Part shown: one piece after another, positions 22,399 to 51,738 of the stretch
How positions within the stretch are numbered: the first letter of the stretch is position 1
Layout of the letters: each line of letters begins with the position of its first letter
Source: Blastocatellia bacterium
Lineage (GTDB): Bacteria; Acidobacteriota; Blastocatellia; UBA7656
DNA: 64,000 bases
Assembly (NCBI GenBank): GCA_049273855.1
Contig: JBASRN010000270.1
Span: 8,320-72,319, forward strand
Reading direction: 5' to 3'
Notes under the pieces: model-generated
What the model was told of the DNA's origin: nothing
Seen by the model: the letters and a program-made list of their open reading frames with translations, nothing else
Database searches by the model: none
Position numbers and translations under genes: made by a program

Positions 22399-22438
22399 CT
22401 TTGTCGCCGCACGAATCTGAATCACCAGTCGCTTGGGG

Positions 22439-23461
22439 CTAAGCGGTGCAAGCCATCCTCCGTTCAACAACATTCGACGCTATATAGTCTACAACCTGCC
22501 TGCCCGTCAGGATAGCATTCTTGATGTGGACTTCACGAGTAACGTGCCCGGCAACGAAGAGCCCGGGAACTGTGGTTTCAAACGTCTCAGGAGAGTATAC
22601 CGGCCGGCCATCATCGGCGATCCTAGCTCCGGCCGTTTCAAGGAGTCGGGTATCCGGGTCGGCACCAATAAGCGCGAATATGTGGTCGCAGTCGACCTCC
22701 CACGTGGTTATATCGCCGCGCGTGCTCCGAAGAAGCGCGCTTCGCGGCCGAATCTCGATGATCTCGGTGGAAGTCAGTACCCGGAGATCGCCGGACCTGG
22801 AGGCCGCCTCGAGAGGACCGAGGACCCAAGGTTTGATCCTCGCGCGCGCGATTAATCGCCCCGAGCTCTCATCCCTGTTTGGTTCTACGGGCGGGCTGAG
22901 CTCGGTTCGGCGAACGCATAGAGTAACGTCCGCGCCGGCTTGCGAAAGGAACAGGGAGGCCTCGGCAGCTGAGTTACCCCCGCCAATCACCAACACTCGC
23001 TTGAAAACTAAAGGATGCGCTTCGAGGAAGCGATATGTGACTCGACAAGGGTCTTCGCCGGGGACACTCAGAAGCCGTCGGCGGCCAAACCCGCCAGTCG
23101 CTGCAAGCACCGCGCGCGCGCGGTAGACTCCGTCACTTGTGCGCACAAGGATTTGACCATCCGTGTTCACCAGCTCATAGACCTCTTCCCGGGTTCGCAG
23201 ATCGATGTTGTGACGCATCACCAGACGTCGATAGTGCCGCAGCAACTCTTCGCGGGTGGGCTTCCGATCCGTTGGGAGGGAACCTGAGTCTATTTCAATC
23301 TCGTCGGAGCTCGAAAACAATACGCCTCCGATCGGATAGCTGTACACTGTGTTGGCGATCGCCTCTCGCTCAAGTATGAGATAGTCAAGTCCGTGATATC
23401 GAGCCCTAACGGCAGCCGCCAACCCGGCGGGACCGCTGCCAACAATGATCAGGTCGTACAT
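22439..23461 (-). CDS. FAD/NAD(P)-binding pyridine nucleotide-disulfide oxidoreductase (thioredoxin-reductase-like)
   Basis: MYDLIIVGSGPAGLAAA dinucleotide-binding motif and a second Rossmann motif VLVIGGGNSAAE. Confidence 0.7.
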   Translation of the reverse strand: MYDLIIVGSGPAGLAAAVRARYHGLDYLILEREAIANTVYSYPIGGVLFSSSDEIEIDSGSLPTDRKPTREELLRHYRRLVMRHNIDLRTREEVYELVNTDGQILVRTSDGVYRARAVLAATGGFGRRRLLSVPGEDPCRVTYRFLEAHPLVFKRVLVIGGGNSAAEASLFLSQAGADVTLCVRRTELSPPVEPNRDESSGRLIARARIKPWVLGPLEAASRSGDLRVLTSTEIIEIRPRSALLRSTRGDITTWEVDCDHIFALIGADPDTRLLETAGARIADDGRPVYSPETFETTVPGLFVAGHVTREVHIKNAILTGRQVVDYIASNVVERRMACTA

Positions 23462-24408: not shown

Positions 24409-25527
24409 TTAAAGAAGGCGCATCGGCATGACTACATACCGGTAGCTATCGGCCTCTTCTCCAGCGGGCCTCATCAGCGCTGGGCTTTGCTCGTCCTTTA
24501 GTTCAAATACGGTTTCTTCGGTCGCTACCACTCCCAAGAAATCGAGTAGATACTGGGCGTTGAAACCGATCGTCAGATCGTCGCCGCTATAATCCACGGC
24601 GATCGCTTCTCTGGACTCGCCCACATCGGCGCTCTGTGAGCTGATGTTCAATCTCCCCTGACCAAGCTCGTATTTGATTCCATGACTCCTCTCGTCGGCC
24701 ATCAGAGCAGCGCGCCTGACTGCTTGCGCAATTTTTTCTGTATTGAGCGTCACTAGTTTATCATTGCCCTTTGGCAGCACGAGATCGTAATTTGGAAACT
24801 GTCCTGCCAGCATCCGCGATGTGAGGTGACGCTGTCCTTGTTTGAAATACAAGTGGTTTGCGTCCGTGGAGAACTCAATATCCTCCTCTGCGGCCGCGGT
24901 CAACTTCAATATCTCGGTCAGCGCCTTTTTTGGAATGATTACTCTCAACTGCTCCTTTTCACTAACAGGTACCTCTTCGATTTCGCAGTCGGCCAGCGCA
25001 AGCCTATGCCCGTCGGTTGCGACCATTCGAAGCCTGCCGTCCGAGAAGGTCAGGAGCGCCCCGCTTAGGGCGTAGCGCGACTCTTCTTGAGTGATCGCGT
25101 ACACGGTCCTGCTGATGAGATTGTGAAGCGCAGTTGACGGAATCGACATTTCAGCTTTACCGGGCTTTGGCGTCGACGGGAAGTGCTCCTTGGCTTGCCC
25201 CGCCAGTCTGAACTCTGAGGATGCACATGTAATCTTAGTCCAGTCGTTAGCTTCCTTGACGAAATCTATATCGGCATCCGGCAAGTACCGCACAAGATCA
25301 AACAGTCGCCTTGCCTGCAGCACTACCGAACCCGCTTCGGAAACGTCCGCTGCGCACTCCGTTTGAAACGACACGTCCAGATCCGTTGCCACAAGTGAGA
25401 CCAGTGATTCATTTACGGTCTCTATTAGGAGGCTGGACAGCACTGGTATTGTTGTCTTCTTCTCGACAATTCCCTGGAGTAGGTTCAACTCCTTTAGGAG
25501 TGATGCTCGGTTCAGGCGGAATCTCAT
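24409..25527 (-). CDS. dnaN: DNA polymerase III beta sliding clamp
   Basis: 372 aa, MRFRLNRASLLKELNLLQGIVEKK... canonical DnaN; immediately downstream of dnaA. Confidence 0.95.
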   Translation of the reverse strand: MRFRLNRASLLKELNLLQGIVEKKTTIPVLSSLLIETVNESLVSLVATDLDVSFQTECAADVSEAGSVVLQARRLFDLVRYLPDADIDFVKEANDWTKITCASSEFRLAGQAKEHFPSTPKPGKAEMSIPSTALHNLISRTVYAITQEESRYALSGALLTFSDGRLRMVATDGHRLALADCEIEEVPVSEKEQLRVIIPKKALTEILKLTAAAEEDIEFSTDANHLYFKQGQRHLTSRMLAGQFPNYDLVLPKGNDKLVTLNTEKIAQAVRRAALMADERSHGIKYELGQGRLNISSQSADVGESREAIAVDYSGDDLTIGFNAQYLLDFLGVVATEETVFELKDEQSPALMRPAGEEADSYRYVVMPMRLL

Positions 25528-25788: not shown

Positions 25789-27171
25789 TCATTTCATGCT
25801 AGTAATTAGATTGTCTATAACGCTGTGGAAAACTGAGTCTTTATCTCGTAAGTTTGAGATCTTATTAATGCTGTGCAACACGGTGCTGTGATGTTTTCCT
25901 CCAAACTCCCTTCCTATCTCTGGCAAGCTGGCCGATGTAAGCGTCTTACAGAGATACATTGCGACTTGGCGCGGAAATGCTATTACTCTTGTGTTGCTCT
26001 TTGACTTGAGATCGGCAGCCTTCAAACTGTAATGTCCAGCAACAATTCTCTGGATCGATTCGATCGAAGGTGCGTCGGATTCAGACTCGATGATGTTTCT
26101 GAGAATGTCCTTAGCCAAATCGATTCCTATCGGGAGCGCTTTAAGTGATGCATATGCAAGAAGCCTTACCAGCGAGCCTTCCAGTTCTCTGATGTTCGAT
26201 TTAATTTTGCTCGCGATGAATATCGCGACATCATCCGGGAGATCGATTCTCTCCAGTTCGGCCTTTCGCTTTAGGATTGCGACCTTCGTTTCGAGATCAG
26301 GCGGCTGAATATCGGCAATCAGACCCCACTCGAATCTCGAATGCAATCGCTCCTCGAGCGTCGGGATTTCTCGCGGCGGACAGTCGCTTGATATGATTAT
26401 TTGCTTTTGAGAGTCGTAGAGCGCGTTAAAGGTGTGAAAAAACTCCTCCTGAGTACGTTCCTTTCCAGCCAGGAACTGAATATCATCGATAAGCAGAACG
26501 TCGATGTTTCGATATCTGTCCCGAAACTTGATCGTCTGGTCGTATCTGATCGCATTTATCAGCTCGTTCATAAATCTCTCGGATGAGATATATGTGAGGC
26601 GCAGCGACTTATTCCTGGTCTTGATTGCATACCCAATGGCGTGCATCAAATGAGTCTTTCCCAGACCCACCCCGCCATAGATATAGAAAGGGTTATAGGT
26701 TTTGGCGGGCATGTCCACCACCGCCAGGGAAGCGGCGTGTGCGAACTGGTTACAGGAGCCCACAACAAAAGTCTCGAACTTGTATTTTGGGTTGAGCGGC
26801 AAATCTGACTGTTCGGGGACCACCGGCCTGGGCGGATCCAAGGCTTGTGAAGATCGCGGCGAGCTAAGCGGCCTATCCAGACCCGGTACAGAATCTGTGT
26901 TCGACGTTTGCCTCCTATTGTCCCCCAGAAGGAACTCGACCTTATAGCCAACTAAGCCCAGCTCCTCAAGAGACTCTTCGATTACGTCGAAATAGTTGGT
27001 GCGGATCCAATCGCGAAAGATTTCGTTCGGAACCGTTAAATAAAGGGTAGAAGAGTCCTTGGCCGCGCGCAAAATCGGTCTAAACCACGTATCGAAGCTC
27101 TCGTGGTTTAATCGCTTTGAAATCGCTCTTAGGACAGAAGAGAGGAGGTCTATCTGGACACCCGTCGTCAT
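25789..27171 (-). CDS. dnaA: chromosomal replication initiator protein DnaA
   Basis: AAA+ Walker [16 protein letters not shown], DnaA signature and C-terminal DNA-binding domain. Start taken at MTTGVQ (27171); the listed ORF extends to 27210. Confidence 0.95.
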
Positions 27172-27432
27172 TTCACGCCTCCCTATTAGGCACAGAGCAT
27201 TCGCCAACAAAAGGACGAGGTTAGCCGAGCACCGAATGGGCGACCGCGCTCCTCGATAAAGCAGACGACAACAAAGGACCGGCTGTTGAAACTCGCGAAC
27301 AGTATCACAAGTACCGAACTGTTTTCAATCCCGTCGCCTTGCGCTATATGAATAACTGCACCTTAATTAACCCAATAACAGGGTTATACCTGTTTTAATC
27401 AAAATCTGGCCCAGATCACCGCGCAATGTAGA

Positions 27433-27448: not shown

Positions 27449-27540
27449 GTGTTTGCCGTTATGGTAAAAGCTCGGGGTCTAGAGTTCAGAGATAGTTGCG
27501 ACTGTTGGTCTGGGTTCGGTTTGTGGTATGTTACCAAGCC

Positions 27541-28323
27541 ATGCCCAGAATAATAGCCATCGCCAACCAGAAGGGTGGCGTTGGCAAAACGACTTCCGCC
27601 ATAAACCTGGCAGCCAGCCTGGCAATTGCCGACCGACGGGTCTTGTTGGTTGACGCGGACCCACAGGGCAACAGCACCAGCGGACTGGGGTTACGGGGCA
27701 CATTTCAGAATAGCCTTTATCACTCGTTGGTCTCGAACCACTCGCTTGATTCAATCGTTTTGGCGAGTGAGTTATCGGGGCTATCGGTCATTCCCTCCGA
27801 GAAGATACTGGTGGCGGCCGAAATCGAACTTGTTGGAGTTGAAGAGAGGGAATTCAAGCTCAAAAAAGCACTGGAGCCGGTCGCCGCGAATTATGATTAT
27901 GTGCTGATCGACTGCCCGCCGAGCCTGGGACTCCTAACTTTGAACGCATTGGCTGCGGCCCACTCGGTGCTGGTTCCGATTCAATGCGAGTACTTTGCTC
28001 TTGAGGGAGTCTCGGAGCTTTGGGACACTCTGGTCAAAGTGCGTAGAAGTTTGAACCCAGCCTTGGCCATCGAGGGTTTTCTGCTTACGATGTTTGACGA
28101 AAGAACGAACCTCTCAAACCAGGTCGTATCCGATTTGAGGGGGTTTCTAGGGTCTCAAGTTTTTTCCACCGTGATACCAAGGAACGTTCGACTTGCCGAG
28201 GCACCCAGCCACGGCAAGCCGATTGTGCTGTACGATGTCCGATCTAAGGGTGCCGAAAGTTACCTTCGATTGGCACGGGAGGTGATCGACAATGTCAAGA
28301 CGGGCATTGGGCAGGGGGCTTGA
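27541..28323 (+). CDS. parA: chromosome partitioning ATPase ParA (Soj)
   Basis: Deviant Walker A IAIANQKGGVGKTTSAINLA; start at ATG 27541. Confidence 0.9.
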   Translation: MPRIIAIANQKGGVGKTTSAINLAASLAIADRRVLLVDADPQGNSTSGLGLRGTFQNSLYHSLVSNHSLDSIVLASELSGLSVIPSEKILVAAEIELVGVEEREFKLKKALEPVAANYDYVLIDCPPSLGLLTLNALAAAHSVLVPIQCEYFALEGVSELWDTLVKVRRSLNPALAIEGFLLTMFDERTNLSNQVVSDLRGFLGSQVFSTVIPRNVRLAEAPSHGKPIVLYDVRSKGAESYLRLAREVIDNVKTGIGQGA

Positions 28324-29155
28324 TGCGCTCTTCCCCCAGGCTAATCCTATCAACAACGATCTGATTGATTTGGATGTTGAGAGCATCGATCCAGGGGTCG
28401 AGCAACCTCGACGCGACTTCAACGAGGAGAAACTGACGGAACTGGCCCGATCGATAGAAGCGAACGGTGTCATTCAGCCAATCGTGGTGCGCCGAGTCGG
28501 CGAGCGATTCCAAATAATCGCCGGCGAGCGCCGCTGGCGAGCTGCGAAGAAGGCCGCTCTGAAGCGGATCCCAAGTCTGATTCGCAATGTTCCGGAGGAG
28601 AATATCCTCGAGTTGTCCCTCATTGAGAACATACAGCGCCAGGAGCTAAACCCGATAGAAGAGGCGAATGCGTATCGCAAGCTTCAGGAACAACTAGGCA
28701 TTACTCAGGAGGCAGTGGCGCAGCGAGTTGGAAAAGACCGTTCGTCGGTGACGAACTCTTTGAGACTTCTAAAGCTGCCCGAGGACGTCCAACGACTAGT
28801 CGAGGACGCCAGGCTTTCAATGGGGCACGCTCGAGCGTTACTCCCTATCGAATCCGCCGACAGGCAAAGAGACTTGGCCGAAGAGATTGTGACCAAACTG
28901 CTTTCGGTGCGACAGACTGAGAAGTTGGTTAAGAATGAACTTGCCACAAATACGCCGCGTCAAACAAAGCCCGAGCCAAAAAACGATGGTGAAACTGCCA
29001 ACATACTCGCGGCCGAGGCAAAGCTGAGCAGGAGGCTTGGAGCGCCAGTAAGGATCAGGTCCCTGAAAGCCGGGGGCGTGGTTGAAATTAGGTTCTCGTC
29101 GAGAGACGAACTTTCACGGATCTTCGATCTACTAATACGGAGGCCGCTGGAGTGA
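28292..29155 (+). CDS. parB: chromosome partitioning protein ParB (Spo0J)
   Basis: MSRRALGRGLDALF N-terminus, ParB box GERRWRAA, HTH; overlaps parA by 32 bp. Confidence 0.9.
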   Translation: MSRRALGRGLDALFPQANPINNDLIDLDVESIDPGVEQPRRDFNEEKLTELARSIEANGVIQPIVVRRVGERFQIIAGERRWRAAKKAALKRIPSLIRNVPEENILELSLIENIQRQELNPIEEANAYRKLQEQLGITQEAVAQRVGKDRSSVTNSLRLLKLPEDVQRLVEDARLSMGHARALLPIESADRQRDLAEEIVTKLLSVRQTEKLVKNELATNTPRQTKPEPKNDGETANILAAEAKLSRRLGAPVRIRSLKAGGVVEIRFSSRDELSRIFDLLIRRPLE

Positions 29156-30189: not shown

Positions 30190-31305
30190 TGAAACCTCAT
30201 TCTTACCCCCTCCTTTTTTTCTTACGTAGCAACGCAATTTTGTTGACAATGCTTAGGCGTCTATGCTAATCTCGTGTTGCTCGGAAAGGGGCAACGAAAT
30301 GAACTGCCAAGATTGCAAAGCGCCGTCAAAGAAATTCGGGAAAGACCGCAAGGGAAATCAGCGTTTCCGCTGCCTGTCTTGCGGAAAGACGTTTAGCGAG
30401 CCGCGCCCGCGTCTCTTGGGGAACATGACGCTAGACGAAAACAAAGCGATTGATTGCCTCAGGCTCTTGGTCGAGGGCAATTCGATTCGGAGCATAGAGA
30501 GGTTTACCGGCGTTCATCGCAATACGATTATGAGCCTTCTTGAGCTAGCGGGCGAACGATGCGAAAAGCTGATGGAAGATCGCATCAAGCACCTATCTGT
30601 TAATGACGTTCAATGCGATGAAGTTTGGGGCTACGTTGGAATGAAAGAGCGAACCAAGGCTCGCAAGGGCGTTGATGACGATAACCTTGGCGATGCTTGG
30701 ACGTTCACCGCGATTGAACGCAATACCAAAATGATTCTTGCCTTTCACCTTGGCCGAAGAACGGAAGCCGATACGATTGCTTTCACTGAGAAGTTGGCCC
30801 ACGCAACTAAGGGCAGTTTTCAAATCACAACAGACGGATTCAGACCGTATCAACACGCAGTTGTTATGAGTCTCGGAGCGCAGCGCGTAGACTTCGCGCA
30901 ACTTGTTAAGCTCTACTCCAGCACACCGGAAGGGCCGCAGACTCGCTACTCCCCGGCTGAGTGTACTGGAGCCCGTAAGGTTCCGATCTACGGTAGTCCT
31001 GATATGGACAAGGTTTCCACTTCGCATATCGAACGCCACAATCTTTCGATCAGAATGAGTACTCGAAGAATGACAAGACTCACTAATGCGTTCTCAAAGT
31101 CTTGGAAGAATCATCAAGCGGCTCTTGCAGTTTATCTTGCCTACTACAATTTTTGTCGCGTACATCAAACGCTAAGAATCACTCCAGCAATGGAGGCAAA
31201 CATTACAGATCACGTCTGGACAATGCGCGAGCTACTAGGCTAAAGCGCGCTTGCCTTTGTTGCCAATATGATATAATAACAGAACCTCTCATTTAGGGGG
31301 TTTAG
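30190..31305 (+). mobile_element. IS1-family insertion sequence (boundaries approximate)
   Basis: Single-ORF IS1-type transposase within the low-GC islet. Flanking AACCTCATT / AACCTCTCATT and ACCCCCT / AGGGGGT motifs are noted, but terminal inverted repeats could not be resolved confidently. Confidence 0.4.
30299..31243 (+). CDS. IS1 family transposase (fused InsAB-like single ORF)
   Basis: N-terminal zinc finger CQDCKAPS...CLSCGK, then DEVWGYVG, TTDGFRPY and C-terminal YNFCRVHQTLRITPAME motifs typical of IS1 transposases. ATG 30299 with a GGAAAGGGG RBS. Confidence 0.8.
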   Translation: MNCQDCKAPSKKFGKDRKGNQRFRCLSCGKTFSEPRPRLLGNMTLDENKAIDCLRLLVEGNSIRSIERFTGVHRNTIMSLLELAGERCEKLMEDRIKHLSVNDVQCDEVWGYVGMKERTKARKGVDDDNLGDAWTFTAIERNTKMILAFHLGRRTEADTIAFTEKLAHATKGSFQITTDGFRPYQHAVVMSLGAQRVDFAQLVKLYSSTPEGPQTRYSPAECTGARKVPIYGSPDMDKVSTSHIERHNLSIRMSTRRMTRLTNAFSKSWKNHQAALAVYLAYYNFCRVHQTLRITPAMEANITDHVWTMRELLG

Positions 31306-31545: not shown

Positions 31546-32151
31546 ATGACTAATCCGCAGATTCGTCATATTCTTGCTTTCACTACCACGTTCCCCGGTC
31601 TTACAGATCGCATTATCACCGAAGTAAAGCTAACCCAAGCGTTTGATCCAAACACGCCACCAAATCCCATACCGGCGCTCATAGCAACAGCTGCATTATG
31701 GGATACAGGGGCAACTAGGAGCGTCATCACCCCGAGTATTGCGGCAGATCTGAAACTTGTTCCAACGGGAACCGTGATGATGAATTCTGCGCATGGTTCC
31801 AAACAATGCAACACGTATCTAGTTAACCTTTACTTGCCCAACGGCGCTGCGATTTATGGTGTTCCCGTTAGCGAATGCACGGACACTGCTCACTTTGGAG
31901 CGATCATCGGAATGGACATTATTGCGATGGGCGACTTCTCGATTACGAATGTAAATCGCAAGACGATAGTTTCCTTCCGCATCCCGTCTATTGCCACCGT
32001 GGACTACGTCGCCGACGTCAAGAAACTGAAGGCAGAACAAGAAAGGCTGGAGAACGCAAAGCCGATTCGCAATAAGGGTCCGCGTGTCGGGCGCAATGAC
32101 CCATGTCCCTGCGGATCGGGGAAGAAGTACAAGAAATGCTGCGGCGGCTAG
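31546..32151 (+). CDS. retropepsin-like (clan AA) aspartic protease with C-terminal SEC-C zinc-binding motif
   Basis: [10 protein letters not shown] catalytic D-T-G-A, downstream IIGMDII flap/dimer motif, and a C-terminal [18 protein letters not shown] that exactly fits the SEC-C motif. Confidence 0.65.
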
Positions 32152-42850: not shown

Positions 42851-43648
42851 TCATACCCCTTGAAAGAAATCAATCAGAGCGCGGTTCACGTCTTCCGGCT
42901 TCTCGGTGAAGAACACGTGGCCGGTCTGGGGGAACTCGATAAGGCGCGCGCCGGGGATGCGCTCGGCAATCAAGCGCGAGTTCCCCGGGTCTACAAGCGT
43001 GTCTTCGGTTCCCGTCATCACCAGGGTTGTGTGTCGGATCTGAGGCAGCCGGTCAAAAGTGTCGTGCAGCATTACCGCGCCGAGTTGAAGAAGATAGGAA
43101 GATTTGGGCTGGTTGTTGTCAGCCATAAGTTTCAGGGTTTCTTCGACAAGCTCGGGTTGCTCTTCGACGGTCTTAGCCGCGAACAGAAGCGGGATCGAAT
43201 GTCTGAGCGCGTCCGGACGCGGCATATCGCGCGACTCATTGAATATCTGCACCGCCCATTCCGGCGCGCGAGAAGCGGTTCGCGGACCGGCGTGCGTGCA
43301 ACCCAGCGCCAGCCGCCTCACCTTCTGAGGGTGACGCAGCGCAAGCTCCTGCGCGATCATACCGCCAAGCGACACGCCGAATACGTGCGCGCTCTCGACT
43401 TCCAGCGCATCGAGCAGCGCTGCGGTGTCGTCAGCCATATCCGCAATGGTGAAAGCAAGCTGAGGTTGTTCGCTCCTGCCCACGCAGCGATTGTCGAACG
43501 CGATCACCTGGAAGTGTGGCGCGAGTCCTGCGACTTGATCAGCGAAACCTTCGCACGTCGAGCCGAGCCCGCGAATCAACAACAGCGGCTCACCCTCGCC
43601 GTGCAGCTCGTAGTACATCTTGAGTAGGTTGGCTTGAACTGTAGGCAC
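42851..43648 (-). CDS. alpha/beta hydrolase fold protein
   Basis: GVSLGGMIAQ nucleophile elbow (GxSxG) and a downstream His motif; adjacent to the OMP gene with no gap. Confidence 0.85.
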   Translation of the reverse strand: MPTVQANLLKMYYELHGEGEPLLLIRGLGSTCEGFADQVAGLAPHFQVIAFDNRCVGRSEQPQLAFTIADMADDTAALLDALEVESAHVFGVSLGGMIAQELALRHPQKVRRLALGCTHAGPRTASRAPEWAVQIFNESRDMPRPDALRHSIPLLFAAKTVEEQPELVEETLKLMADNNQPKSSYLLQLGAVMLHDTFDRLPQIRHTTLVMTGTEDTLVDPGNSRLIAERIPGARLIEFPQTGHVFFTEKPEDVNRALIDFFQGV

Positions 43649-44051
43649 TGATTCTCGACGGTTCCTTTATAGACCTAGGTTGAACCCGATTGAAGTGTGT
43701 CCCGTTTCGCGCTGAGTGGTCAACACTAGAGCGTTCCAGCAAACAGAATATTTTCACTTTGTGTCGGGCGCTCCAGAGCGATGGGCGCTCGGATTGACGG
43801 CGGTATGATCGACACGCTTGACCAATCGAATTCGTGCAGCGCATCTACAGCCTCACCCTCCTTGATCAAGCAGCGACTTCACGACCCACAAACATTCTTC
43901 TCCAAACAAGACTTTCTGTGTAGAATCAGCTCACCCCCTCAACAAAAAGCATGGAGCCCCGCGCGAGCATCACTATAGTCAGCTAACAGAGAGTTGCTCC
44001 TTCAAGCGTCGTTCCGGACAAGAGAATACTCCGAAGTAGAGCGGGGGCGCA

Positions 44052-46106
44052 GTGCAGGCGGCCGGCTCCTGCCTAAATAGGGTGACACCGGTGACAACAA
44101 CAGACCCAAACGAAACTCCGTCAATTGCCCCTCAATCTGAGGCCGTCGCCGCTTCCTCCAGACCGCTATGGGCCAGCTCGGCACTCATCGTTGTCGTCGG
44201 GGTTCTTGTCTACGTCAACAGTTTCGGCGGGCAAATAGTGTTCGACGACGTGGTGATAACGGACGACTCCTCGATCCGCCAGCTTTGGCCGCCGTGGGGA
44301 GCGATGTCCTCGCCGAAGCAGGTCTCGCGTCCGCTGGTCGGGCTGTCGCTTGCGATCAACTACGCGATGAGCGGCACCGGCCTCTGGAGCTACCATCTGT
44401 TTAACCTCGTTATCCACATACTGGCCGCGCTGACGTTATTCGGGGTGGTTCGTAGAACACTGCTCACCGACGGGTTGAAAGACCGATTCGGAAAGGCATC
44501 GACCGGTCTCGCTCTCGCGGTTGCGTTGATCTGGATGGTACATCCAGTGCACACCGAGTCGGTGACCTACCTGATACAGCGTTCGGAGGCGATGTGCGGG
44601 TTGTTCTATCTGCTTACGCTCTACTGCGTAATTCGGGGACGCTCGGGGCAGCACGGTGCGCTCTGGTACAGCGCCGCTGTCTTAAGCTGCGCGGCGGGCA
44701 TGGCGAGCAAGCCGGTGATGGTCACGGCCCCGATCATGGTGCTGATCTACGATCTGGTTTTTTTCCGGGACTCGTTGAAGGAAACACTCCGACGGCGGGC
44801 AATTCTCTATGGGGGTCTCGCTTTCACCTGGATAGTCATAGCGGTCACGGTTCACGCCGCGAGTCCTTATCAGGAGTCTGCGGGCTTCCATCTCGAGCGG
44901 ATGACGCCGCTCAGTTACTTGGTTTCGCAGTTCGGGGTGATTGTTCACTACTTGCGACTGTCGGTGTGGCCTTACGATCTGTGTATTGATTACGGCTGGC
45001 CGCTTGCTGACGACGCCACCAGGATCGTCCCGTTCGCGGTGGTCGTCGGCGCTCTCGGGCTGCTGACGCTGATGGCGCTCAAGCGCCGACCCGAGGTTGG
45101 GTTTCTCGGCATTTGGTTCTTCTTGATCCTCGCGCCAACATCGAGCATCATGCCGATCCTCGACGTGGCGGTTGAGCATCGTATTTATCTCTCGCTTGCT
45201 GCCGTTGTGGCGCTTGTAGTGTTGGGGTGCTACCGATTTGCGCCTTCGCCGCGGCTGAGGAATTCTGCTACCACGCGCTGGCTGGGGGTCGGCGCGGTCG
45301 CGATAGTCGTGGCGTGGTTCGGCTCGCTTACGGTGGAGCGCAATGGTTACTACCAGAGCAGGACAGCGATGTGGCTGGACGTTGTCAGAAAGCGGCCCGA
45401 CAATTGGAGAGGTCACAACAACCTTGGTTTTTGTCTCACGGAGAAGGGCGACCGTGAAGGCGCGCGGGAGCGGTTTGCCGAAGCGCTCAGGCTGAGACCA
45501 GGCGCCATCGACGTTCTGGATAACATGGGGATGTGGCTGTTGAATTCGGACACGCCCGGTGAGGCACTGCCCTATTTTCAACAGGTGCTTAACGTGGATC
45601 CCGGCAGGAAGAGATTGCATTTTAACATCGGCCGAGCTCTGGAGAATCAGGCCCGATTGGATGAAGCCGTCCACGCGTACAACGAGGAGTTAAGGCTTAA
45701 CCCTGGGTCTGCGGAAGCTCGCATGCAACTTGGTTGGGTGCTCGAGCGGCAGAAGAAGTTCAGTGAGGCGGCCGCGGCTTATCAGGATACGCTGGCTGTC
45801 GCTCCAGAGTGGCCTCAACCTCTTTGCCGGTTTGCTCTATTGTTAGTCGACGCCGAGGCGAAGGAACTTCGGAATACGGGCGAGGCGATTCGAATGGCGG
45901 ACAAGGCGGTGAGCGTCTCCAGCCGTGAACCGGTCACGCTGGACGTCCTGGCTTCGGTCTACTCCTCGACCGGGCAATTCGAGCAAGCAATCGCCGTCGC
46001 GACGGAAGCAATCGACATGGCCAAATCCGGAGGCGCGGATCAACTGGCCGCGGCGATCGAGGGCCGCCTGGAGATGTATAAGCAAGGCCGCTCGGCAAGG
46101 CCTTAG
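44052..46106 (+). CDS. TMTC/PMT_2-like multi-pass membrane protein with C-terminal TPR repeats (putative protein O-mannosyltransferase-like)
   Basis: An N-terminal region of about 400 aa with more than 8 TM helices (DUF1736-like) followed by TPR repeats. Confidence 0.65.
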   Translation: MQAAGSCLNRVTPVTTTDPNETPSIAPQSEAVAASSRPLWASSALIVVVGVLVYVNSFGGQIVFDDVVITDDSSIRQLWPPWGAMSSPKQVSRPLVGLSLAINYAMSGTGLWSYHLFNLVIHILAALTLFGVVRRTLLTDGLKDRFGKASTGLALAVALIWMVHPVHTESVTYLIQRSEAMCGLFYLLTLYCVIRGRSGQHGALWYSAAVLSCAAGMASKPVMVTAPIMVLIYDLVFFRDSLKETLRRRAILYGGLAFTWIVIAVTVHAASPYQESAGFHLERMTPLSYLVSQFGVIVHYLRLSVWPYDLCIDYGWPLADDATRIVPFAVVVGALGLLTLMALKRRPEVGFLGIWFFLILAPTSSIMPILDVAVEHRIYLSLAAVVALVVLGCYRFAPSPRLRNSATTRWLGVGAVAIVVAWFGSLTVERNGYYQSRTAMWLDVVRKRPDNWRGHNNLGFCLTEKGDREGARERFAEALRLRPGAIDVLDNMGMWLLNSDTPGEALPYFQQVLNVDPGRKRLHFNIGRALENQARLDEAVHAYNEELRLNPGSAEARMQLGWVLERQKKFSEAAAAYQDTLAVAPEWPQPLCRFALLLVDAEAKELRNTGEAIRMADKAVSVSSREPVTLDVLASVYSSTGQFEQAIAVATEAIDMAKSGGADQLAAAIEGRLEMYKQGRSARP

Positions 46107-46368
46107 CCCCAATCGGCTTCCGGGTGTTGGAAGGCAGCAGTTCCCCTTGTGCGACCACCATGCACCCGAAGATGGACTGGGCCCAGGAGTTGTTGCTCGT
46201 GCGAAATAGGCTGTGCGATACTCCACCGAAAGGGAAGCCAAAGTTCAGAGGGCCAGCCGCAGCGGAATCGTTTCCCGCTTCTGCGGGCTCTAAGCTCGGA
46301 GTCGCGGTGGTCTTGAGATACTAACCTGCGCAACTGGCTGGCAAGATTCAGCACTACGGGGTGTCAAA

Positions 46369-48609
46369 ATGCATCGCAGAGTTCTTTCTGTCTTTCTAAG
46401 TTTTTGCTTGTTTGCTTCGTTCGCGGCTGCAGGCCCTCACCAAAAACCAGCGGCACGCAAGGCGAAACCAGCCCCGCAGAAGCCGCCGGCTGCGAAGCAG
46501 GAAGTAAAGACTGGGCCGACCGCCGCAAAGCCGGCCGAACCCTCGAAAAAGCCGCCCCGGGCCGACAACCAGTGGGCGTTGGTGGTCGGGATCAGCAAGT
46601 ATCCGGGTCAAATTCAGAGTTTGAATTTTCCGCGCGACGATGCGCGCGCGGTCAAGGACATGCTCGTTACCGACGCAGGGTTCGCTGAAGATCACATCCG
46701 ATTGCTCACCGACGATGGGGCCGGGGAGGCTAAGGCGACGAGGCAGAACATTCTTGCTGCAGTGGACGGCTACCTGGCGCCGCGTGTGCAGCCGGGGCAC
46801 GAGGTAATCGTTTTCTTCGCCGGCCACGGGATCGCTCGTGGCCTGGGCCAGCAAGCGAAGAGCTACTTCCTGCCGGTCGACGTCGATGCGCAGTCAAAGG
46901 AATCGCTCGAGCGAACGGCTGTCGATCTGGAGGATCTTGCGCGCCGGCTCAGCGTATTGAAGGCGTCTCAGTTTTCGATATTCATAGACGCCTGCCGCGA
47001 AGACCCCTTTCCGGGCCGCGGCATCAAGGGCAACACGATGACCGATGTTATGAGCCGCGGCTTGCGGATAACGCGCGGCGGTTCCACGGCTGCCGAAGCG
47101 GCGCCGGCGACTTCGATCATCTTTTACGCCTGCAAAGTTGGCGAGCGCGCTTACGAAGATCCTGAACTCAAGCACGGCGTCTTTACTTATTTTATTCTTT
47201 CCGGAATTCGAGACCTGGCGAACAGGCCGGACGGCCGGGTGGACGCCGGCTTTCTAGCAAATTTTTTGCGCGACAATATGCAAAAGTGGAGCTCGGAGTA
47301 TCAGAAGCGCGCGCGCTATGCCGTAGAGCAGACGCCGATGATGGTCGCGACTGAGGTGCACGGCCCGCTGGTCATCGTTCGATTGGCTCAGATTGCGGCG
47401 AACCCTCCGGCGCCGCCGGCCACCGGCTCGATCGCTCTGTTCACCTCGCCGAAGGACGCTACGTTGAGCTTGAATGGCAAAACGTTGGGCACCGCGCCGA
47501 TCGAAAAGGAAATCCAGGCTGGTGAGTACACCGTTCGAGCCGAGTCGCAGGGCTTTCAACCCACCGAAGCAAAGATCACGGTTGTGCCCGGCTACCAGCA
47601 GGAATTTACGATCACGTTGAAACCAACCGCAACCAACGCCAGTTACGAGAAGGGTGTGCAGTTCGAAGCTCAAAAGCTGTGGCCGCAAGCGGTCGCTTCC
47701 TACGAACAGGCACTGCGCGAAGACCCGAGCCTGACCGCCGCACTGGAGCGTCTGGCAAACGCATACACCGCAGCCGGACGTTTTCGCGATGCTGCCGATC
47801 TGCTAACCACGGCTTCTGAGAAGGCTCCCGACAATGCAGTGTTGCTTGCGCGGCGCTCGCGGGCTCTTGGCCAATGGTCGCTGCAAGACGAGACCCTGGA
47901 CGCCTCGATAAACCCGCGACCGGATAAGGCGACCAGGTACAAGGACGCCGCCAAGGAAGCGGTTAGAGCGGCGGAGCTGGCCACCAAGAAAGCACCCGAC
48001 CTTGCGGTTGTTAATCTCGCGCTCGGGTATGCGTACACGCTTCAGGAACGCGACCGGCCGAAGGCGATCCCGGCGTTTGTCCGCGCCTCGACGATCGCGC
48101 CCGAAGACCCGGAAAGCTACTATGGAGTTGGCTACGGCTATCGGCTGATGAAGCAGTACCCGCAGGCGATTCCTCAATTAAGGAAGGCCATCGAGCTGCG
48201 GTCTGATTACTACGAAGCGCATCGCGAGCTGGCTTATTGCTATCACGCGACAGGCGACACCGATCAAGCGATCAAAGAGTACAACACCGCGAGCGGTTAT
48301 CAAGGAGAGACCAGCAACTCTGGCGACATGGCGGGCAATCATCTCGCGCTCTCCGCGCTCTACGCCGAGAAGGGTCAGCAGGTGGGTGGCGCAGAAGGAG
48401 AAGAGATCTCGAAAGCAGGGAAGGGTCACGAGACTGAAGCCCGGGGCTACGATCCAACGTTGAAAGCGGCCCTCAAGATACTGCAAGGCAGCGGCGTGGC
48501 GTATCGCATGCAAAGTTACTTGCCGTCAGAGTTACGCAACGTTATCAACACCCCGGGGGTGCCTGTGCCCGGCGGCGTTAAGATACCGTTTCCGAGGAAG
48601 CGTCCGTAG
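46369..48609 (+). CDS. caspase-like (peptidase C14) domain protein with PEGA domain and TPR repeats
   Basis: Signal peptide. C14 core WALVVGISKY...VIVFFAGHGI (catalytic His) ... SIFIDACRE (catalytic Cys). PEGA-like TLSLNGKTLGTAPIEKE...YTVRAESQGFQP, then TPR repeats. Confidence 0.7.
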   Translation: MHRRVLSVFLSFCLFASFAAAGPHQKPAARKAKPAPQKPPAAKQEVKTGPTAAKPAEPSKKPPRADNQWALVVGISKYPGQIQSLNFPRDDARAVKDMLVTDAGFAEDHIRLLTDDGAGEAKATRQNILAAVDGYLAPRVQPGHEVIVFFAGHGIARGLGQQAKSYFLPVDVDAQSKESLERTAVDLEDLARRLSVLKASQFSIFIDACREDPFPGRGIKGNTMTDVMSRGLRITRGGSTAAEAAPATSIIFYACKVGERAYEDPELKHGVFTYFILSGIRDLANRPDGRVDAGFLANFLRDNMQKWSSEYQKRARYAVEQTPMMVATEVHGPLVIVRLAQIAANPPAPPATGSIALFTSPKDATLSLNGKTLGTAPIEKEIQAGEYTVRAESQGFQPTEAKITVVPGYQQEFTITLKPTATNASYEKGVQFEAQKLWPQAVASYEQALREDPSLTAALERLANAYTAAGRFRDAADLLTTASEKAPDNAVLLARRSRALGQWSLQDETLDASINPRPDKATRYKDAAKEAVRAAELATKKAPDLAVVNLALGYAYTLQERDRPKAIPAFVRASTIAPEDPESYYGVGYGYRLMKQYPQAIPQLRKAIELRSDYYEAHRELAYCYHATGDTDQAIKEYNTASGYQGETSNSGDMAGNHLALSALYAEKGQQVGGAEGEEISKAGKGHETEARGYDPTLKAALKILQGSGVAYRMQSYLPSELRNVINTPGVPVPGGVKIPFPRKRP

Positions 48610-48660
48610 CGCCGAAGCTTTCTCGTGACAGGGGAGCGATCGGGTGTTCGTCCGATTTGA

Positions 48661-49635
48661 TCAGAACAAAGAAGGCTGACTGACAGCCAGGCCCGATCGA
48701 CTCTTCATCCAACTCAGCAGGTCGTCGATGTCTTTCAGGTCAGACTCGGCAACCGGCGAGGCCCCTTTCCTGATCAACGCGTGGTTGCCGGCGGGCACTT
48801 CGTCGCCCATTCTCACAAACACCGGACACGAGCCGGACTTCAACGCCTCCGTAGCCCCCGCCCAGGTCCCGCCTTTCTCGACGTCGCTCGAAACCACTAC
48901 CGCGTAGTCCGCGAAACCGTAGATCAACTTGTTGCGACCCATCGCAGCGCCGATCGAAAACCCTGCCGAAGGTGAATAAGGAGTCACCAACGCCAGCTTC
49001 CTGTCGGAAAGCGCGTCGCGCAGGTTGGGCGCGCGAACCGCCCGCTCCAGGCTGTCGGCGAGCACCCCCAGCGACGTGCCGCCCGCGGAAAGCGACGCTC
49101 CCATCGCAATCGCGTCCGTGCCGCGAGCGCCGCCCGAGATAACCGTCACCGAAAGCCCGGCGCACTTCTGGCCGATTTCCTCGGCGAAACTCTTTCCGCG
49201 TTCGTCAACGCTTCGGGACCCCACAACCGCAACCCCGCCCTTGTTCAACAGTGCGAGTTTGCCGGCCGCGAACAAGACGGGCGGCGCCACATGCTTGAGC
49301 GACTCACGAAGCCGCGACGGATAGTCTTCATCGACGCAGGTCACCGGCGTTATGCCGAGACTCGTGAGTCGCTCGACTTCTATTGCAACCGACTCGCTGT
49401 CTTCGAGTAGATGGTGGATTCGCTCGGCGTCAACCGGCGGAATCTCGAGCTCGGCGGCTATCTCCGACGCCCCAAGTCCGAGCAACGCGCCTGCGGCACC
49501 TAGCGCGGACGAGCTGATCTTTCGCGACAGCTCATTCCATTCTCTGGCCGACAGAGGCCGCACGCCGTCAGCCGGATCTGAATCGCCAGCAGTTGAACAG
49601 AGCAGCAGCACCGCCTGACTATCATCGTTTAACAT
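48661..49635 (-). CDS. dprA: DNA processing protein DprA (Smf/DprA-SLOG Rossmann family)
   Basis: VAVVGSRSVDERG ... VISGGARGTDAIAMGASL ... LALVTPYSP ... FSIGAAMGRNKLI motifs of DprA. Start abuts the stop of the upstream RecQ fusion gene. Confidence 0.85.
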   Translation of the reverse strand: MLNDDSQAVLLLCSTAGDSDPADGVRPLSAREWNELSRKISSSALGAAGALLGLGASEIAAELEIPPVDAERIHHLLEDSESVAIEVERLTSLGITPVTCVDEDYPSRLRESLKHVAPPVLFAAGKLALLNKGGVAVVGSRSVDERGKSFAEEIGQKCAGLSVTVISGGARGTDAIAMGASLSAGGTSLGVLADSLERAVRAPNLRDALSDRKLALVTPYSPSAGFSIGAAMGRNKLIYGFADYAVVVSSDVEKGGTWAGATEALKSGSCPVFVRMGDEVPAGNHALIRKGASPVAESDLKDIDDLLSWMKSRSGLAVSQPSLF

Positions 49636-51738
49636 TCAACTGCTCCCAACAGTCGCGCTCGCCAGGGCGAACGGATAGACAGGGCCGCTTCCGTTCTTCC
49701 GCAGCAGCCACGACACCACGGTCAAGGTCCACCGCGAGTCCACCACGTCGTCGATCAACAGAACGGGGTCGTTCGGCACTTCGCCGACAACCTCGAAAGC
49801 ATCAATCACGTTCCGCAGTTGCTGCGCGCTGTTCTGCATACTCTTCTGCGCGGGTCGTTCAATTGTCTTTCGTAAGACGGGTATAAACGGCAAACCCAAC
49901 CTCTGGGCGAGACGCGCCGCGAAAGTATACACCAGCGTTGGATCACGCAACGAAGGCACGGCGGTGACCCACGCCGGGGGAGGGTCGGGTTGCCACCGCC
50001 GTTGAATCATCTCAGCCGAAGCGTCGGCGAGCGTGTCGCCGAACTGTCGGGTTTGATACTTGCAGCGGGCGACTTCTCGCCCCCAGCCGGCGTCGCCGTA
50101 GACGCTCAGCACGCGGCCGGCGCTCGCCCTCAGGTCTTCCGGTATGCGCCCCGACACAAGCGGCGATGCCCCGCTTTGCCATTGTTTTCTCGGCTCGATC
50201 ACCAGCGCCGCTCCACGAAGGTACGCGACTGCGCGTTGTTTGAGCCGCTCGTCCAGATCGCGTTTTGGAAGCTTGCCCGTGCAGTTCATACATCGTCCGC
50301 ACCTTGCCGCCGCGGGGTCGTCGAGCGCCTGCGCCAGAAACTCCATCAAGCAGCGGTCGAGCGCGACGTAGCGGCGCATCTCTTCCAGCTCGCGCAGTCT
50401 CAACGCGGTCACCGCTTCGGTGCGAGCCGTGTCGGGCTGCCAGTGGTTCGGTGTACGAGAGTAACGCCTTTTGTCTCGCGAAACCGCGCCGTCGAGTTCC
50501 AGCAGCTTCAGCGCTTTTTCGATCGTCCCAAACGAGTAGTTGAGCGCGTTCATGATCTCGAAGATGGTCAAGCCAACGGTCGGCTCGACCAGATCGATGA
50601 TCTCCTGCATAGCGCGTTCGGGTGGAAACGCGGACCGGATGAAGTACTCCTGTATCTCGTCGTCTTCGCGGCCGCTGAGCAGAATGCCAAACGCGCTGTC
50701 GACTGCGCGACCCGCGCGTCCGACCTGCTGATAGTACGCGATGACCGAGCCGGGCCGCTGGAAGTGTATGACGAACCCCAGGTCGGGTTTGTCGTAGCCC
50801 ATCCCGAGCGCGGTCGTCGCTACCAGACACTTGATCTGGTTTCCGAGCAAGGCTTGCTCTGCGCCGGTCCGCTCTTCCTCCGGAAGATCGGCGTAGTACG
50901 GGCGAGCTTCGATGCCGTTCTCACTCAGCCAGCTTGATACCCGTCGCACGTCGTTGACGGTCAGGCAGTAGACGATTCCGCTTCCTTCAAGGTTTGGCAG
51001 ATGTTGCGCGAGCCATGCGAGGCGTTCGCTCTGATCGGCGAGCTGGATGTTGAACAACCGCAGCGAAGGTCGCGTGAGCGCTCCACGCTGCACCTTGAGG
51101 TCCGAGCCGATCTGAGCGATTACATCATCGATGACCCGGGTGTTTGCGGTGGCTGTCGTGCACAGCACCGGCACTTTCGAAGGCAGCGCTTGAAGCACGC
51201 GCACGATTCGCCTGTAGTCGGGCCGGAAATCGTGACCCCAATCAGAGATGCAGTGCGCTTCGTCGACTACTAACAGGCCTACCCGCTCTCGAATTTTCGC
51301 AAGCACGTTGTTTAAGAAGCGCTCATTGTTGAGTCGCTCGGGCGCGATCAACAGGATGTCGCACTCGTCTTGCTGCAACTGCAATTCGACGCCGTCCCAC
51401 TCTTCGGTATTGTCGCTGTTGATCGTCGCCGGCCGGATGCCAAGGCCCCGAGCCATGTCCAGCTGATTGCGCATCAGCGCGCGTAGCGGGCTGACCAGAA
51501 GTGTGGGTCCCGCACCCGCGTCGCGCAGCAGCCTGGTTGACAAGAAATAGACGAGACTCTTTCCCCAACCTGTGCGCTGCACAACCAGGAGCCGTCCGCG
51601 ATTGACCGCGATCTCGCTAATGGCATCCCATTGACGTTCGCGGAACCGTGCATTCCTGCCATACATTTGTTTGAGTAGCGCCTCGGCTTTTGCCTGGTGA
51701 GGATCCGACATCGAAACCTCCGACGCGCCCGCAGGCAA
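49636..51738 (-). CDS. RecQ-family DNA helicase fused to C-terminal ComFC/GntX-like phosphoribosyltransferase (PRTase-fold) domain
   Basis: Helicase motifs (QRTGWGKSLVY, VVDEAHCISDWGHDFRP, RQC zinc motif RCGRCMNCTG). The final ~200 aa (...R..R...Q..L...RNVIDAF.V......PVLLIDDVVDSRWTLTVV...) match the ComFC-type PRTase signature. Confidence 0.85.
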   Translation of the reverse strand: MPAGASEVSMSDPHQAKAEALLKQMYGRNARFRERQWDAISEIAVNRGRLLVVQRTGWGKSLVYFLSTRLLRDAGAGPTLLVSPLRALMRNQLDMARGLGIRPATINSDNTEEWDGVELQLQQDECDILLIAPERLNNERFLNNVLAKIRERVGLLVVDEAHCISDWGHDFRPDYRRIVRVLQALPSKVPVLCTTATANTRVIDDVIAQIGSDLKVQRGALTRPSLRLFNIQLADQSERLAWLAQHLPNLEGSGIVYCLTVNDVRRVSSWLSENGIEARPYYADLPEEERTGAEQALLGNQIKCLVATTALGMGYDKPDLGFVIHFQRPGSVIAYYQQVGRAGRAVDSAFGILLSGREDDEIQEYFIRSAFPPERAMQEIIDLVEPTVGLTIFEIMNALNYSFGTIEKALKLLELDGAVSRDKRRYSRTPNHWQPDTARTEAVTALRLRELEEMRRYVALDRCLMEFLAQALDDPAAARCGRCMNCTGKLPKRDLDERLKQRAVAYLRGAALVIEPRKQWQSGASPLVSGRIPEDLRASAGRVLSVYGDAGWGREVARCKYQTRQFGDTLADASAEMIQRRWQPDPPPAWVTAVPSLRDPTLVYTFAARLAQRLGLPFIPVLRKTIERPAQKSMQNSAQQLRNVIDAFEVVGEVPNDPVLLIDDVVDSRWTLTVVSWLLRKNGSGPVYPFALASATVGSS

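Follow-up and report, generated by a model that had tools for sequence, protein, structure and literature searches.

A soil Blastocatellia bacterium encodes, in neighboring genes on the same (+) strand, a caspase-family protease and a membrane sugar transferase of the PMT/TMTC type. Both open reading frames (ORFs) lie within the 64,000-nucleotide stretch analyzed here (the window), at the positions reported in a preliminary description (44052-46106 and 46369-48609, both +), and the Pfam domain matches of both products have E values far beyond chance. On balance, we favor the view that these are two independent cell envelope genes that became neighbors by chance in one Blastocatellia lineage, the protease being periplasmic and the transferase dependent on a polyprenyl-phosphate sugar.

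Domains and active site of the caspase-like protein

The gene at 46369..48609 (+), supported by its ORF, Pfam matches, orthologues, and an AlphaFold model (pLDDT 82.7), encodes a putatively exported 746-amino-acid (aa) protein with caspase-family (C14), PEGA, and TPR domains. This layout and the His/Cys dyad had been proposed previously, and both are confirmed by the Pfam matches and by the motifs AGHG (residues 151 to 154) and DACRE (residues 207 to 211). The C14 domain (46567..47403, +) matches PF00656 over residues 68 to 327 (66.9 bits versus a cutoff of 21.4; E = 2.7e-18) and has a caspase/hemoglobinase fold by Foldseek. It is followed on the + strand by a PEGA beta-sandwich (47416..47628; PF08308, residues 353 to 420, E = 2.5e-12; strands at 352 to 416 in the model), a TPR/helical-repeat domain (47635..48558; matches to several TPR families over residues 440 to 645, helices at 424 to 727 in the model), and a short tail, VPGG..PFPRKRP (48559-48606), that is kept in close orthologues. 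Extracytoplasmic proteins of this type were previously considered largely uncharacterized, and so is this one, its database label being just “caspase family protein.”

The N terminus (46369..46431, +) resembles a signal peptide without a lipobox. MHRR is followed by a hydrophobic segment (residues 5 to 23 by hydropathy, with 14 hydrophobic residues) that closes with AAA|G, and residues 2 to 14 are helical in the model. Its conservation in orthologues agrees with the export signal proposed in the preliminary description. A disordered Pro/Lys/Ala-rich linker (residues 22 to 66; 46432..46566, +) follows, with pLDDT of <50 over residues 15 to 52 and 11 Pro and 11 Lys plus Arg per 45 residues.

His153 (46825-46827, +) and Cys209 (46993-46995, +), the catalytic residues, are invariant, together with the acidic residues D91 and D207, in homologues down to about 25 to 30% identity. 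In the model, His153 follows strand 145-152 and Cys209 follows strand 201-208. The loop behind the catalytic Cys (46996..47109, +), REDPFPGRGIKGNTMTDVMSRGL..., is kept in homologues with as little as about 30% identity and is partly disordered in the model (pLDDT of <50 at residues 219 to 229).

The protein shares the Pfam C14 domain and caspase/hemoglobinase fold, the His-Gly and Asp-x-Cys active-site motifs, and the acidic pocket Asp after strand 1 with metacaspases and bacterial orthocaspases (MEROPS C14B; AtMC4, AtMC9, yeast Yca1, and Microcystis MaOC1). The sequences align through the catalytic His, its GHG being aligned with that of the plant metacaspases AtMC9 and AtMC4, and Foldseek matches metacaspases with an E value of 1e-8. 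Unlike metacaspases and orthocaspases, the family has Pro or Ala in place of the pocket Cys (AtMC9 C29) and a specific conserved post-Cys loop (PGRGxKGNxxTDVxxRGL); in addition, PEGA follows the catalytic domain and the protein is predicted to be extracytoplasmic. Prokaryotic C14 homologues with TPR fusions and N-terminal signal-like helices have already been catalogued (PMC3501461), while no description of a caspase-PEGA protein was found in the searched literature. Structurally, the catalytic domain is closest to that of the MALT1 paracaspase (caspase plus Ig3; 3v4o_A, TM score of 0.77 on target), in which a beta-sandwich also follows the catalytic domain, and caspase-Ig3 structures align over 410 to 430 columns. 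Sequence identity to MALT1 is 13 to 17%, and the two domains are oriented differently relative to each other (root mean square deviation of about 23 Å over both domains). MALT1 is a cytosolic protein carrying death and Ig domains, whereas the caspase-like protein is predicted to be exported and has its TPRs at the end.

Three other readings of the protein were considered. Disordered Pro/Lys/Ala linkers are characteristic of envelope proteins that are tethered, and the presence of such a long linker behind the hydrophobic segment in this family would fit an uncleaved signal anchor holding the protease to the inner membrane, rather than a soluble periplasmic or secreted enzyme. The segment is short, however, and its AAA|G end is a canonical AxA-like site, making an anchor rather unlikely. 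The C14 domain could instead be an inactive binding scaffold or pseudoenzyme within a PEGA/TPR envelope protein. Protease activity is not assured, because the pocket Cys, which is needed for full metacaspase activity and whose loss reduces it, is replaced by Pro or Ala, and an intact dyad is no proof of activity (PMC5756287). Nevertheless, invariance of the His, the Cys, and both pocket Asp residues at such low identity is the pattern of a working active site and MALT1 is an active protease, so that loss of function is unlikely. An effector role in anti-phage defense or another conflict system is suggested by the known caspase-plus-TPR architectures of such systems, a match to the PADLOC “caspase” model (E = 1.2e-19), a weak TPR-S match, and adjoining defense genes: PsyrTA lies directly downstream in the window and in locus L005, and the same junction contains AAA_15/21 genes in L005 and L006. 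This role is nonetheless most improbable. The predicted export signal places the protein outside the cytoplasm, orthologue loci contain no conserved NTPase or sensor partner, and most orthologues sit amid housekeeping genes. Moreover, PsyrTA is a convergent, self-contained two-gene system, and the EACC1-type caspase model scores 44.8, far under its cutoff of 140.

The GT-C glycosyltransferase gene

The upstream gene (44052..46106, +; longest ORF, 684 aa) was described previously as TMTC/PMT-like, and the evidence agrees: its product has a GT-C fold nearest yeast Pmt4 and Pmt2, 11 membrane helices, a DD motif in periplasmic loop 1, and a TPR domain at the C terminus. The 100% identical NCBI homologue (P0084) starts at a GTG at 44091 and has 671 aa. 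The membrane domain (44052..45362, +) has at least eight hydropathy peaks versus 11 helices in the model, and the N terminus and Arg/Lys-rich loops are predicted to be cytoplasmic. The periplasmic TPR domain (45363..46103, +) has strong Pfam matches over residues 455 to 660 (TPR_2, E = 2.6e-24, and others) and helical repeats at 424 to 664 in the model. The FDD motif (D65 and D66 of the 684-aa form; 44241..44249, +) lies directly behind membrane helix 1 and corresponds to the catalytic DD/DDx motif defined for TMTC and other GT-C enzymes (PMC7801869). Its first Asp is invariant and its second nearly so among 50 relatives, and both are invariant in the membrane domain alignment (n = 11 sequences).

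Like eukaryotic TMTC1-4 O-mannosyltransferases, the protein has 11 membrane helices, a cytoplasmic N terminus, a DD motif in its first outer loop, and a noncytoplasmic C-terminal TPR domain. The periplasmic loops of the family contain invariant D, R-P, RxE, K, DYxW, and ExRxY motifs that correspond to TMTC motifs M1 to M5 and M7, with counterparts of M2 (..SRP), M3 (RxE), M4 (Lys plus Thr), M5 (DYxW), and M7 (ExRxY). Unlike in TMTC1-4, Pro replaces the metal-binding Glu of M4, M6 (PxxP) as written is not matched, and Pfam DUF1736 has no match in the protein or its examined relatives. The host is bacterial, and the donor would therefore be polyprenyl-phosphate linked, rather than dolichol linked as for TMTC1-4. 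PMT_2 matches are significant in 6 of 11 relatives (best E = 7.3e-8), linking the family to protein O-mannosyltransferases (yeast Pmt4 and Pmt1/Pmt2), but the window protein falls below the Pfam cutoff (22.7 versus 26.1 bits) and is only 11 to 12% identical to PMTs. It also lacks their MIR domain, having instead a TPR array after the last helix. Among bacterial GT-C enzymes, the Pseudomonas aeruginosa pilin arabinosyl-/oligosaccharyltransferase TfpW (646 aa) is, by its description, of similar size and likewise combines 11 membrane helices with a DDx motif on the periplasmic side and a TPR domain in the periplasm at its C terminus.

Linkage of the two genes across genomes

The preliminary description placed both genes in an envelope proteolytic/glycosylation module, a proposal that the distribution of the pair does not support. 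Adjacency is confined to one narrow clade, comprising the window and four other assemblies (loci L005, L006/L010, L008/L009, and L089). These loci form a single clade in the protease tree that also includes L011, in whose genome (assembly DATMCM01) the two genes lie on separate contigs with other neighbors. A TMTC-like gene occurs near the protease gene in only 1 of 31 informative acidobacterial species-level loci (L010) and in none of the Armatimonadota/Abditibacteriota protease loci. Neighbors of the protease family are variable; in Abditibacteriota, the protease gene shares an operon with a CHASE2 cyclase. TMTC-like orthologues have GT2-(MT)-GT2 genes upstream in six of seven contexts but the protease downstream in just five. 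The upstream GT2 (311 aa) has its greatest similarity to synthases of polyprenyl-phosphate sugars, such as AglJ, PpgS, and Dol-P-hexose transferase.

A functional pair, in which O-glycosylation of the protease by the GT-C/TPR enzyme, at the Pro/Thr/Ser linker or the PEGA sandwich, controls protease stability, localization, or activation, would account for a shared strand and adjacency in five assemblies. Within the clade, both flanks are rearranged around the intact pair, with loss of the GT2 genes upstream in the window and SecA, AAA_15/21 genes, or PsyrTA downstream, a pattern that would fit weak selection for linkage. Predictions place both TPR domains and the DD site in the periplasm, and folded beta-sandwich domains are targets of mannosylation by eukaryotic TMTC and TMEM260 enzymes. 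TfpW provides a precedent, as its gene adjoins that of its protein substrate, pilin; tfpW-pilA adjacency is, however, conserved across species (TfpW paper), and that of the protease and GT-C genes is not. It traces to a single event in one clade and has since been lost inside it. The TMTC-like family is very large (>3,800 matches) and the closest protease subfamily is small (83 matches in a word-indexed search; 175 clusters at E ≤ 1e-30), and there is therefore no specific codistribution. The 262-bp spacer (46107..46368) has its own promoter-like block (TTGCTC-N18-GATACT preceded by TG; 46193-46222), conserved in an alignment of four pair-bearing loci, which also counts toward independence; a consensus scan of the spacer found neither promoter nor terminator. 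The window contains no GT2-methyltransferase-GT2 donor synthesis genes. A functional pair is consequently quite improbable, and we infer that the two genes are independent.

A second PEGA/TPR membrane protein was also described previously, and it exists, but the reported end (22398) is an internal ATG of an ORF spanning 20587-22473 (-). Its product has one membrane helix directly before a PEGA domain (residues 123 to 185; E = 1e-15) that shares 29% identity with the PEGA domain of the caspase-like protein, and weak TPRs. The gene lies 21.6 kb from the pair on the opposite strand, and nothing was found to link it to the protease and GT-C genes.

Predicted functions in the cell envelope

The GT-C protein would be an inner membrane glycosyltransferase of PMT/TMTC build that uses a polyprenyl-phosphate sugar as the donor at its periplasmic DD site and passes the sugar to an acceptor in the periplasm, bound by its own TPR domain. 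The GT2/methyltransferase/GT2 genes directly upstream in related genomes probably make this donor. The 746-aa protein would leave the cytoplasm by the Sec pathway and function as a periplasmic cysteine protease of the metacaspase/orthocaspase/paracaspase type, with His153 and Cys209 as its putative dyad. An acidic pocket is the reason that noncaspase C14 members cut after Arg or Lys (PMC5756287); D91 and D207 would form such an S1 pocket, and the same P1 preference is therefore expected. The protein is thus probably a periplasmic, Arg/Lys-specific C14 protease. Its Arg/Lys-rich post-Cys loop is a candidate autoprocessing or regulatory site, and the PEGA sandwich and TPR array may serve to position the protease or recruit its substrates.

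A C14 peptidase with PEGA and TPR domains

The 746-aa protein encoded at 46369-48609(+), hereafter the protease, is a member of peptidase family C14 by its profile match, the positions of its His and Cys residues, and its caspase/hemoglobinase fold. Peptidase_C14 (PF00656) matches residues 68-327 at 66.9 bits (gathering threshold, 21.4; E = 2.7e-18) and covers profile positions 2-225 of 233. Pfam also bears out the other domain calls of the preliminary description, with PEGA (PF08308) at residues 353-420 (46.9 bits versus a cut-off of 20.8; E = 2.5e-12) and TPR repeats at residues 440-645. The motifs AGHG and DACRE begin at residues 151 and 207, respectively. An AlphaFold model derived from 50 sequences (mean pLDDT, 82.7; catalytic core, >90) puts His153 at the end of the strand formed by residues 145-152 and Cys209 at the end of that formed by residues 201-208, as in the caspase topology. 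The two residues of the proposed C14 dyad are predicted to close neighboring strands in a p20-like core. The core is followed by the PEGA domain, modeled as a beta-sandwich (strands 352-416), and then by a long helical-repeat domain.

His153, Cys209, Asp91, and Asp207 are all invariant in alignments reaching homologues of ~25% identity. The GHG motif aligns in HMMER with the catalytic His of Arabidopsis AtMC4 and AtMC9 and with yeast Yca1. Alignments of the C14 domain with PDB sequences, both profile based and single sequence, stop at the catalytic His, so that alignment of the Cys rests on Pfam, conservation, and fold. Foldseek matches the protease to MALT1 (E = 3e-10; TM score of 0.77 on the caspase-only chain) and to the metacaspases Yca1, AtMC4, AtMC9, and that of C. 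glabrata (E = 1e-8 to 1e-7). Assignment to the EACC1-associated caspases (NCBIfam NF047832) was rejected, as the score of 44.8 bits is under the cut-off of 140. A search for the exact sequence of the protease returned no record.

Apart from the animal caspases, all characterised members of C14 cleave after Arg or Lys, with an acidic pocket as the cause (PMC5756287). Given the two invariant Asp residues (D91 and D207), this rule makes Arg/Lys specificity a reasonable expectation for the protease. The pocket Cys of metacaspases (C29 in AtMC9) is tied to activity (PMC5756287), and its position is occupied by Pro88 in the protease and by Ala or Pro in relatives. With this residue replaced, catalytic activity appears likely but is not assured. 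It is possible that the C14 domain is a pseudo-enzyme, as would fit the missing pocket Cys, but the catalytic dyad is strictly conserved. The loop following the catalytic Cys, REDPFPGRGIKGNTMTDVMSRGL, is Arg/Lys rich, partly disordered in the model, and kept down to ~30% identity. Its position is where caspases and metacaspases are processed, and we propose it as a candidate autoprocessing or regulatory loop.

The N terminus, MHRR followed by 14 hydrophobic residues and AAA|G, is common to orthologues and is a predicted export signal, either cleaved or serving as an anchor, in agreement with the signal peptide read earlier. The possibility that the protease is a lipoprotein was rejected, since it lacks a lipobox and has Phe before Cys13. 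The signal segment is followed by a 45-residue Pro/Lys/Ala linker. At the opposite end, a tail of the form VPGG..(I/L)PFP(R/K)KRP (residues 731-746; window positions 48559-48606) is kept in close orthologues and modeled with low confidence, and no match of this tail to any sorting signal was recognised.

A TMTC/PMT-like transferase and its usual neighbors

The upstream gene (44052-46106(+)) encodes a 684-aa protein, hereafter the transferase. Its sequence matches, at 100% identity, that of [quoted passage not shown], an NCBI entry from a 73-kb contig. The transferase is rich in hydrophobic helices and is matched weakly by PMT_2 and strongly by TPR families in Pfam; 6 of 11 relatives also match PMT_2. 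The model (pLDDT, 89.6; pTM, 0.85) has 11 membrane helices followed by TPRs and contains the GT-C membrane fold of the PMT/ArnT/STT3 class. Arg/Lys-rich loops alternate in the sequence as expected for a cytoplasmic N terminus and a periplasmic TPR domain. An FDD motif lies directly after helix 1, in the first extracytoplasmic loop; its first Asp is invariant and its second nearly so among 50 relatives, and both are invariant in an 11-sequence alignment. Invariant positions among the 50 relatives, in predicted periplasmic loops, comprise F-D-D, S-R-P, HPxxTxSVTY..QRxE, the Lys of SKxVMVT, D-Y-x-W, and E-x-R-x-Y.

TMTC proteins are defined by eleven membrane helices, an inside N terminus, and a C-terminal TPR domain on the outer side, and their published motifs M1 to M7 are DD, SHKSYRP, RxD, KE(T/Q)xxT, DW, PxxP, and ERxxY (PMC7801869). 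The modeled transferase resembles them in helix count, N-terminal orientation, and outer-side C-terminal TPR domain. Visual comparison with the published motifs, rather than alignment to TMTC sequences, gives counterparts of M1, M2 (RP), M3 (RxE), M4 (Lys and Thr), M5 (DYxW), and M7 (ExRxY). However, the Glu of M4 is Pro in the transferase, and M6 has no match. DUF1736, the Pfam family for the TMTC loop between helices 7 and 8, is absent from the transferase and its 11 relatives even at E ≤ 1. A sequence search with a profile limited to the membrane domain returned no relative of solved structure. The label “TMTC/PMT-like” given in the preliminary description is therefore fair for the build of the transferase and probably also for how it works, while it is not firmly placed within the TMTC family proper. 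To our knowledge, bacterial TPR-bearing PMT/TMTC-like transferases form a huge family with almost no characterised members.

Seven distinct contexts of orthologous transferases (66 to 100% identity) were compared. In six, the window being the exception, the transferase gene is directly preceded by a GT2-(methyltransferase)-GT2 cluster, with one or more methyltransferase genes (L005:2129-4747, L006:4211-6954, L008:4348-6966, L089:540-4266, L090:2166-5940, and L091:3717-5952, the L numbers denoting homologous loci in other assemblies). The cluster is often itself preceded by a Tricorn-type protease gene. The caspase-like protease gene lies downstream of the transferase in five of the seven contexts. 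A 311-aa GT2 of these loci is closest to polyprenyl-phosphate sugar synthases (AglJ/PpgS/Dol-P-hexose transferases), and, in concept, synthases of this kind usually make the donor for GT-C enzymes (PMC11127046). The GT2 and methyltransferase genes are a better-supported functional lead for the transferase. In the window, the cluster's place is taken by an oppositely oriented alpha/beta-hydrolase gene, and searches of the window found neither GT2 or methyltransferase genes, nor a second TMTC-like gene, nor CHASE2 genes. A three-component system of the Gtr type was also looked for there; no donor-synthase GT2 was found, and no flippase was seen.

Adjacency of the two genes and its genomic setting

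Close homologues of both proteins come nearly all from Blastocatellia MAGs, and the window itself is part of the chromosome of an uncultured member of the Blastocatellia (Acidobacteriota). It adjoins the replication origin, as it contains dnaN (24409-25527(-)), dnaA (25789-27210(-)), parA (27496-28323(+)), and parB (28292-29155(+)). The interval from 24 to 32 kb has a GC content of 0.48-0.53, down from ~0.58. This low-GC stretch by the origin genes also carries an ORF with an IS1-type transposase DDE segment (30263-31243(+)) and another for a small protein that combines a retropepsin-like aspartyl protease domain with a SEC-C motif (31546-32151(+)). The remaining genes serve ordinary metabolism and transport, and no Rfam families or tRNAs were found within the 64 kb. 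The coordinates first noted for the protease and transferase genes stand, both on the plus strand, while the ORF of the second PEGA/TPR membrane protein extends over 20587-22473(-) instead of 20587-22398. Its product is indeed a single-pass PEGA/TPR protein; a link to the protease was rejected, as their only shared part is a PEGA domain of 29% identity and the second gene lies far away on the opposite strand.

The preliminary description proposed that the protease and the transferase may form an envelope-associated proteolytic/glycosylation module, which the distribution of the gene pair does not support. A scan of species-representative genomes with the protease gave 79 loci, which were searched by tblastn with the transferase membrane domain. 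A TMTC-like gene was found near the protease in only one, L010 (on the same contig as L006). Upstream sequence could be judged in 31 acidobacterial loci, and the neighbor is missing in 30 of them; none was found in the protease loci of Armatimonadota/Abditibacteriota. Protease neighbors elsewhere vary and include an amidohydrolase with a bactofilin and a PQQ dehydrogenase with a short-chain dehydrogenase, among others. In a neighbor-joining tree of the protease, the five pair-bearing loci fall with L011 in one clade. In the assembly of L011 (DATMCM01), the transferase orthologue is on another contig, where an unrelated gene for 1,761 aa comes after it. The adjacency therefore has a single origin and has since been broken once. 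Between the two genes, the spacer of 262 bp contains a block kept among pair-bearing loci (46193-46222; TTGCTC-N18-GATACT, the second hexamer preceded by TG). The block resembles a -35 and extended -10 element and may be the protease gene's own promoter. A consensus scan of 43600-48800 was uninformative: it called no promoter anywhere, its terminator-like sites did not exceed background, and it placed no promoter or terminator in the spacer.

That the two proteins nevertheless work together is improbable. Within the clade the adjacency has outlasted rearrangements on both sides, both products are predicted to meet in the periplasm, and TfpW of Pseudomonas, a GT-C enzyme with TPRs, is encoded beside its own protein substrate; against this, the adjacency is not conserved across independent lineages, being confined to one clade and lost within it (L011/L092). 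More specifically, the transferase would capture the protease through its periplasmic TPR domain and would O-glycosylate the linker or the folded PEGA beta-sandwich of the protease, thereby gating protease maturation. We consider this scheme highly improbable; if true, it would be a prokaryotic counterpart of the domain-specific O-mannosylation by TMTC/TMEM260 and would provide the first glycan-controlled bacterial caspase homologue. The genes on the other side of the protease might suggest a role as a defense-system effector. PADLOC identifies PsyrA (DprA-like; 48661-49635(-); E = 8e-100) as the first gene downstream, followed by PsyrT (49636-51738(-); E = 8.6e-289), a RecQ-like helicase with a C-terminal phosphoribosyltransferase-like part, which together we take to be a PsyrTA toxin-antitoxin/anti-phage pair. 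They are convergent with the protease gene and lie 52 nt from its stop codon, and the protease itself has a PADLOC “caspase” match. This role is unlikely, and was rejected, because the protease carries a predicted export signal and lacks any conserved partner of the NTPase or sensor type. The PsyrA/PsyrT pair is also present in L005, and AAA_15/AAA_21 genes occur at the same junction in L005 and L006, so the junction looks like a variable defense-gene spot.

Overall, the annotation of both genes is right and the module proposal is unsupported; each gene belongs to a known kind. A real link would give both proteins a function, but the evidence argues against it, and the practical value of the analysis lies in a clean annotation of the two genes.

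The wider protease family

An exhaustive HMMER search gave 175 cluster representatives at E ≤ 1e-30 and weaker C14 relatives in the thousands, and many of these align over both the C14 and PEGA parts. The subfamily is therefore sizeable, and it is unstudied. Prokaryotic C14 proteins with TPRs, and others with N-terminal signal-like helices, have been catalogued (PMC3501461), and no description of a caspase-PEGA protein was found in the literature searched. Some genomes contain two tandem or nearby caspase/PEGA/TPR copies (L035:5540-10916, L036:4124-10817, L045, and L046). In two metagenome contigs (L003:7403-9656 and L004:8001-9753), the orthologous gene is in two ORFs; since neighboring L004 genes are also fragmented, these are probably frameshift errors of long-read assembly rather than real splits. 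We know of no exported bacterial caspase homologue with a known substrate.

In Abditibacteriota/Armatimonadota, homologues of 34 to 43% identity are encoded at the third and final position of a compact operon, preceded by a CHASE2 sensor with a class III nucleotidyl cyclase and then a 315-aa secreted protein without a Pfam or NCBIfam match. The middle gene is present in 12 loci and the cyclase in 9, with gaps of -4 to 61 nt (L043, L044, L046 to L048, L051, L054, L055, L062, and others; e.g., L054:4992-6956 and L062:5837-6784). Nothing comparable to this arrangement is found within the window. Caspase-CHASE2 fusions are on record in cyanobacteria, and together with the operon they suggest that the protease family may act in extracytoplasmic signaling. 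The CHASE2-cyclase operon of Abditibacteriota is a better-supported functional lead for the family, whose architecture of signal, C14, PEGA, and TPR with a conserved post-Cys loop defines a subfamily suited to biochemical work.
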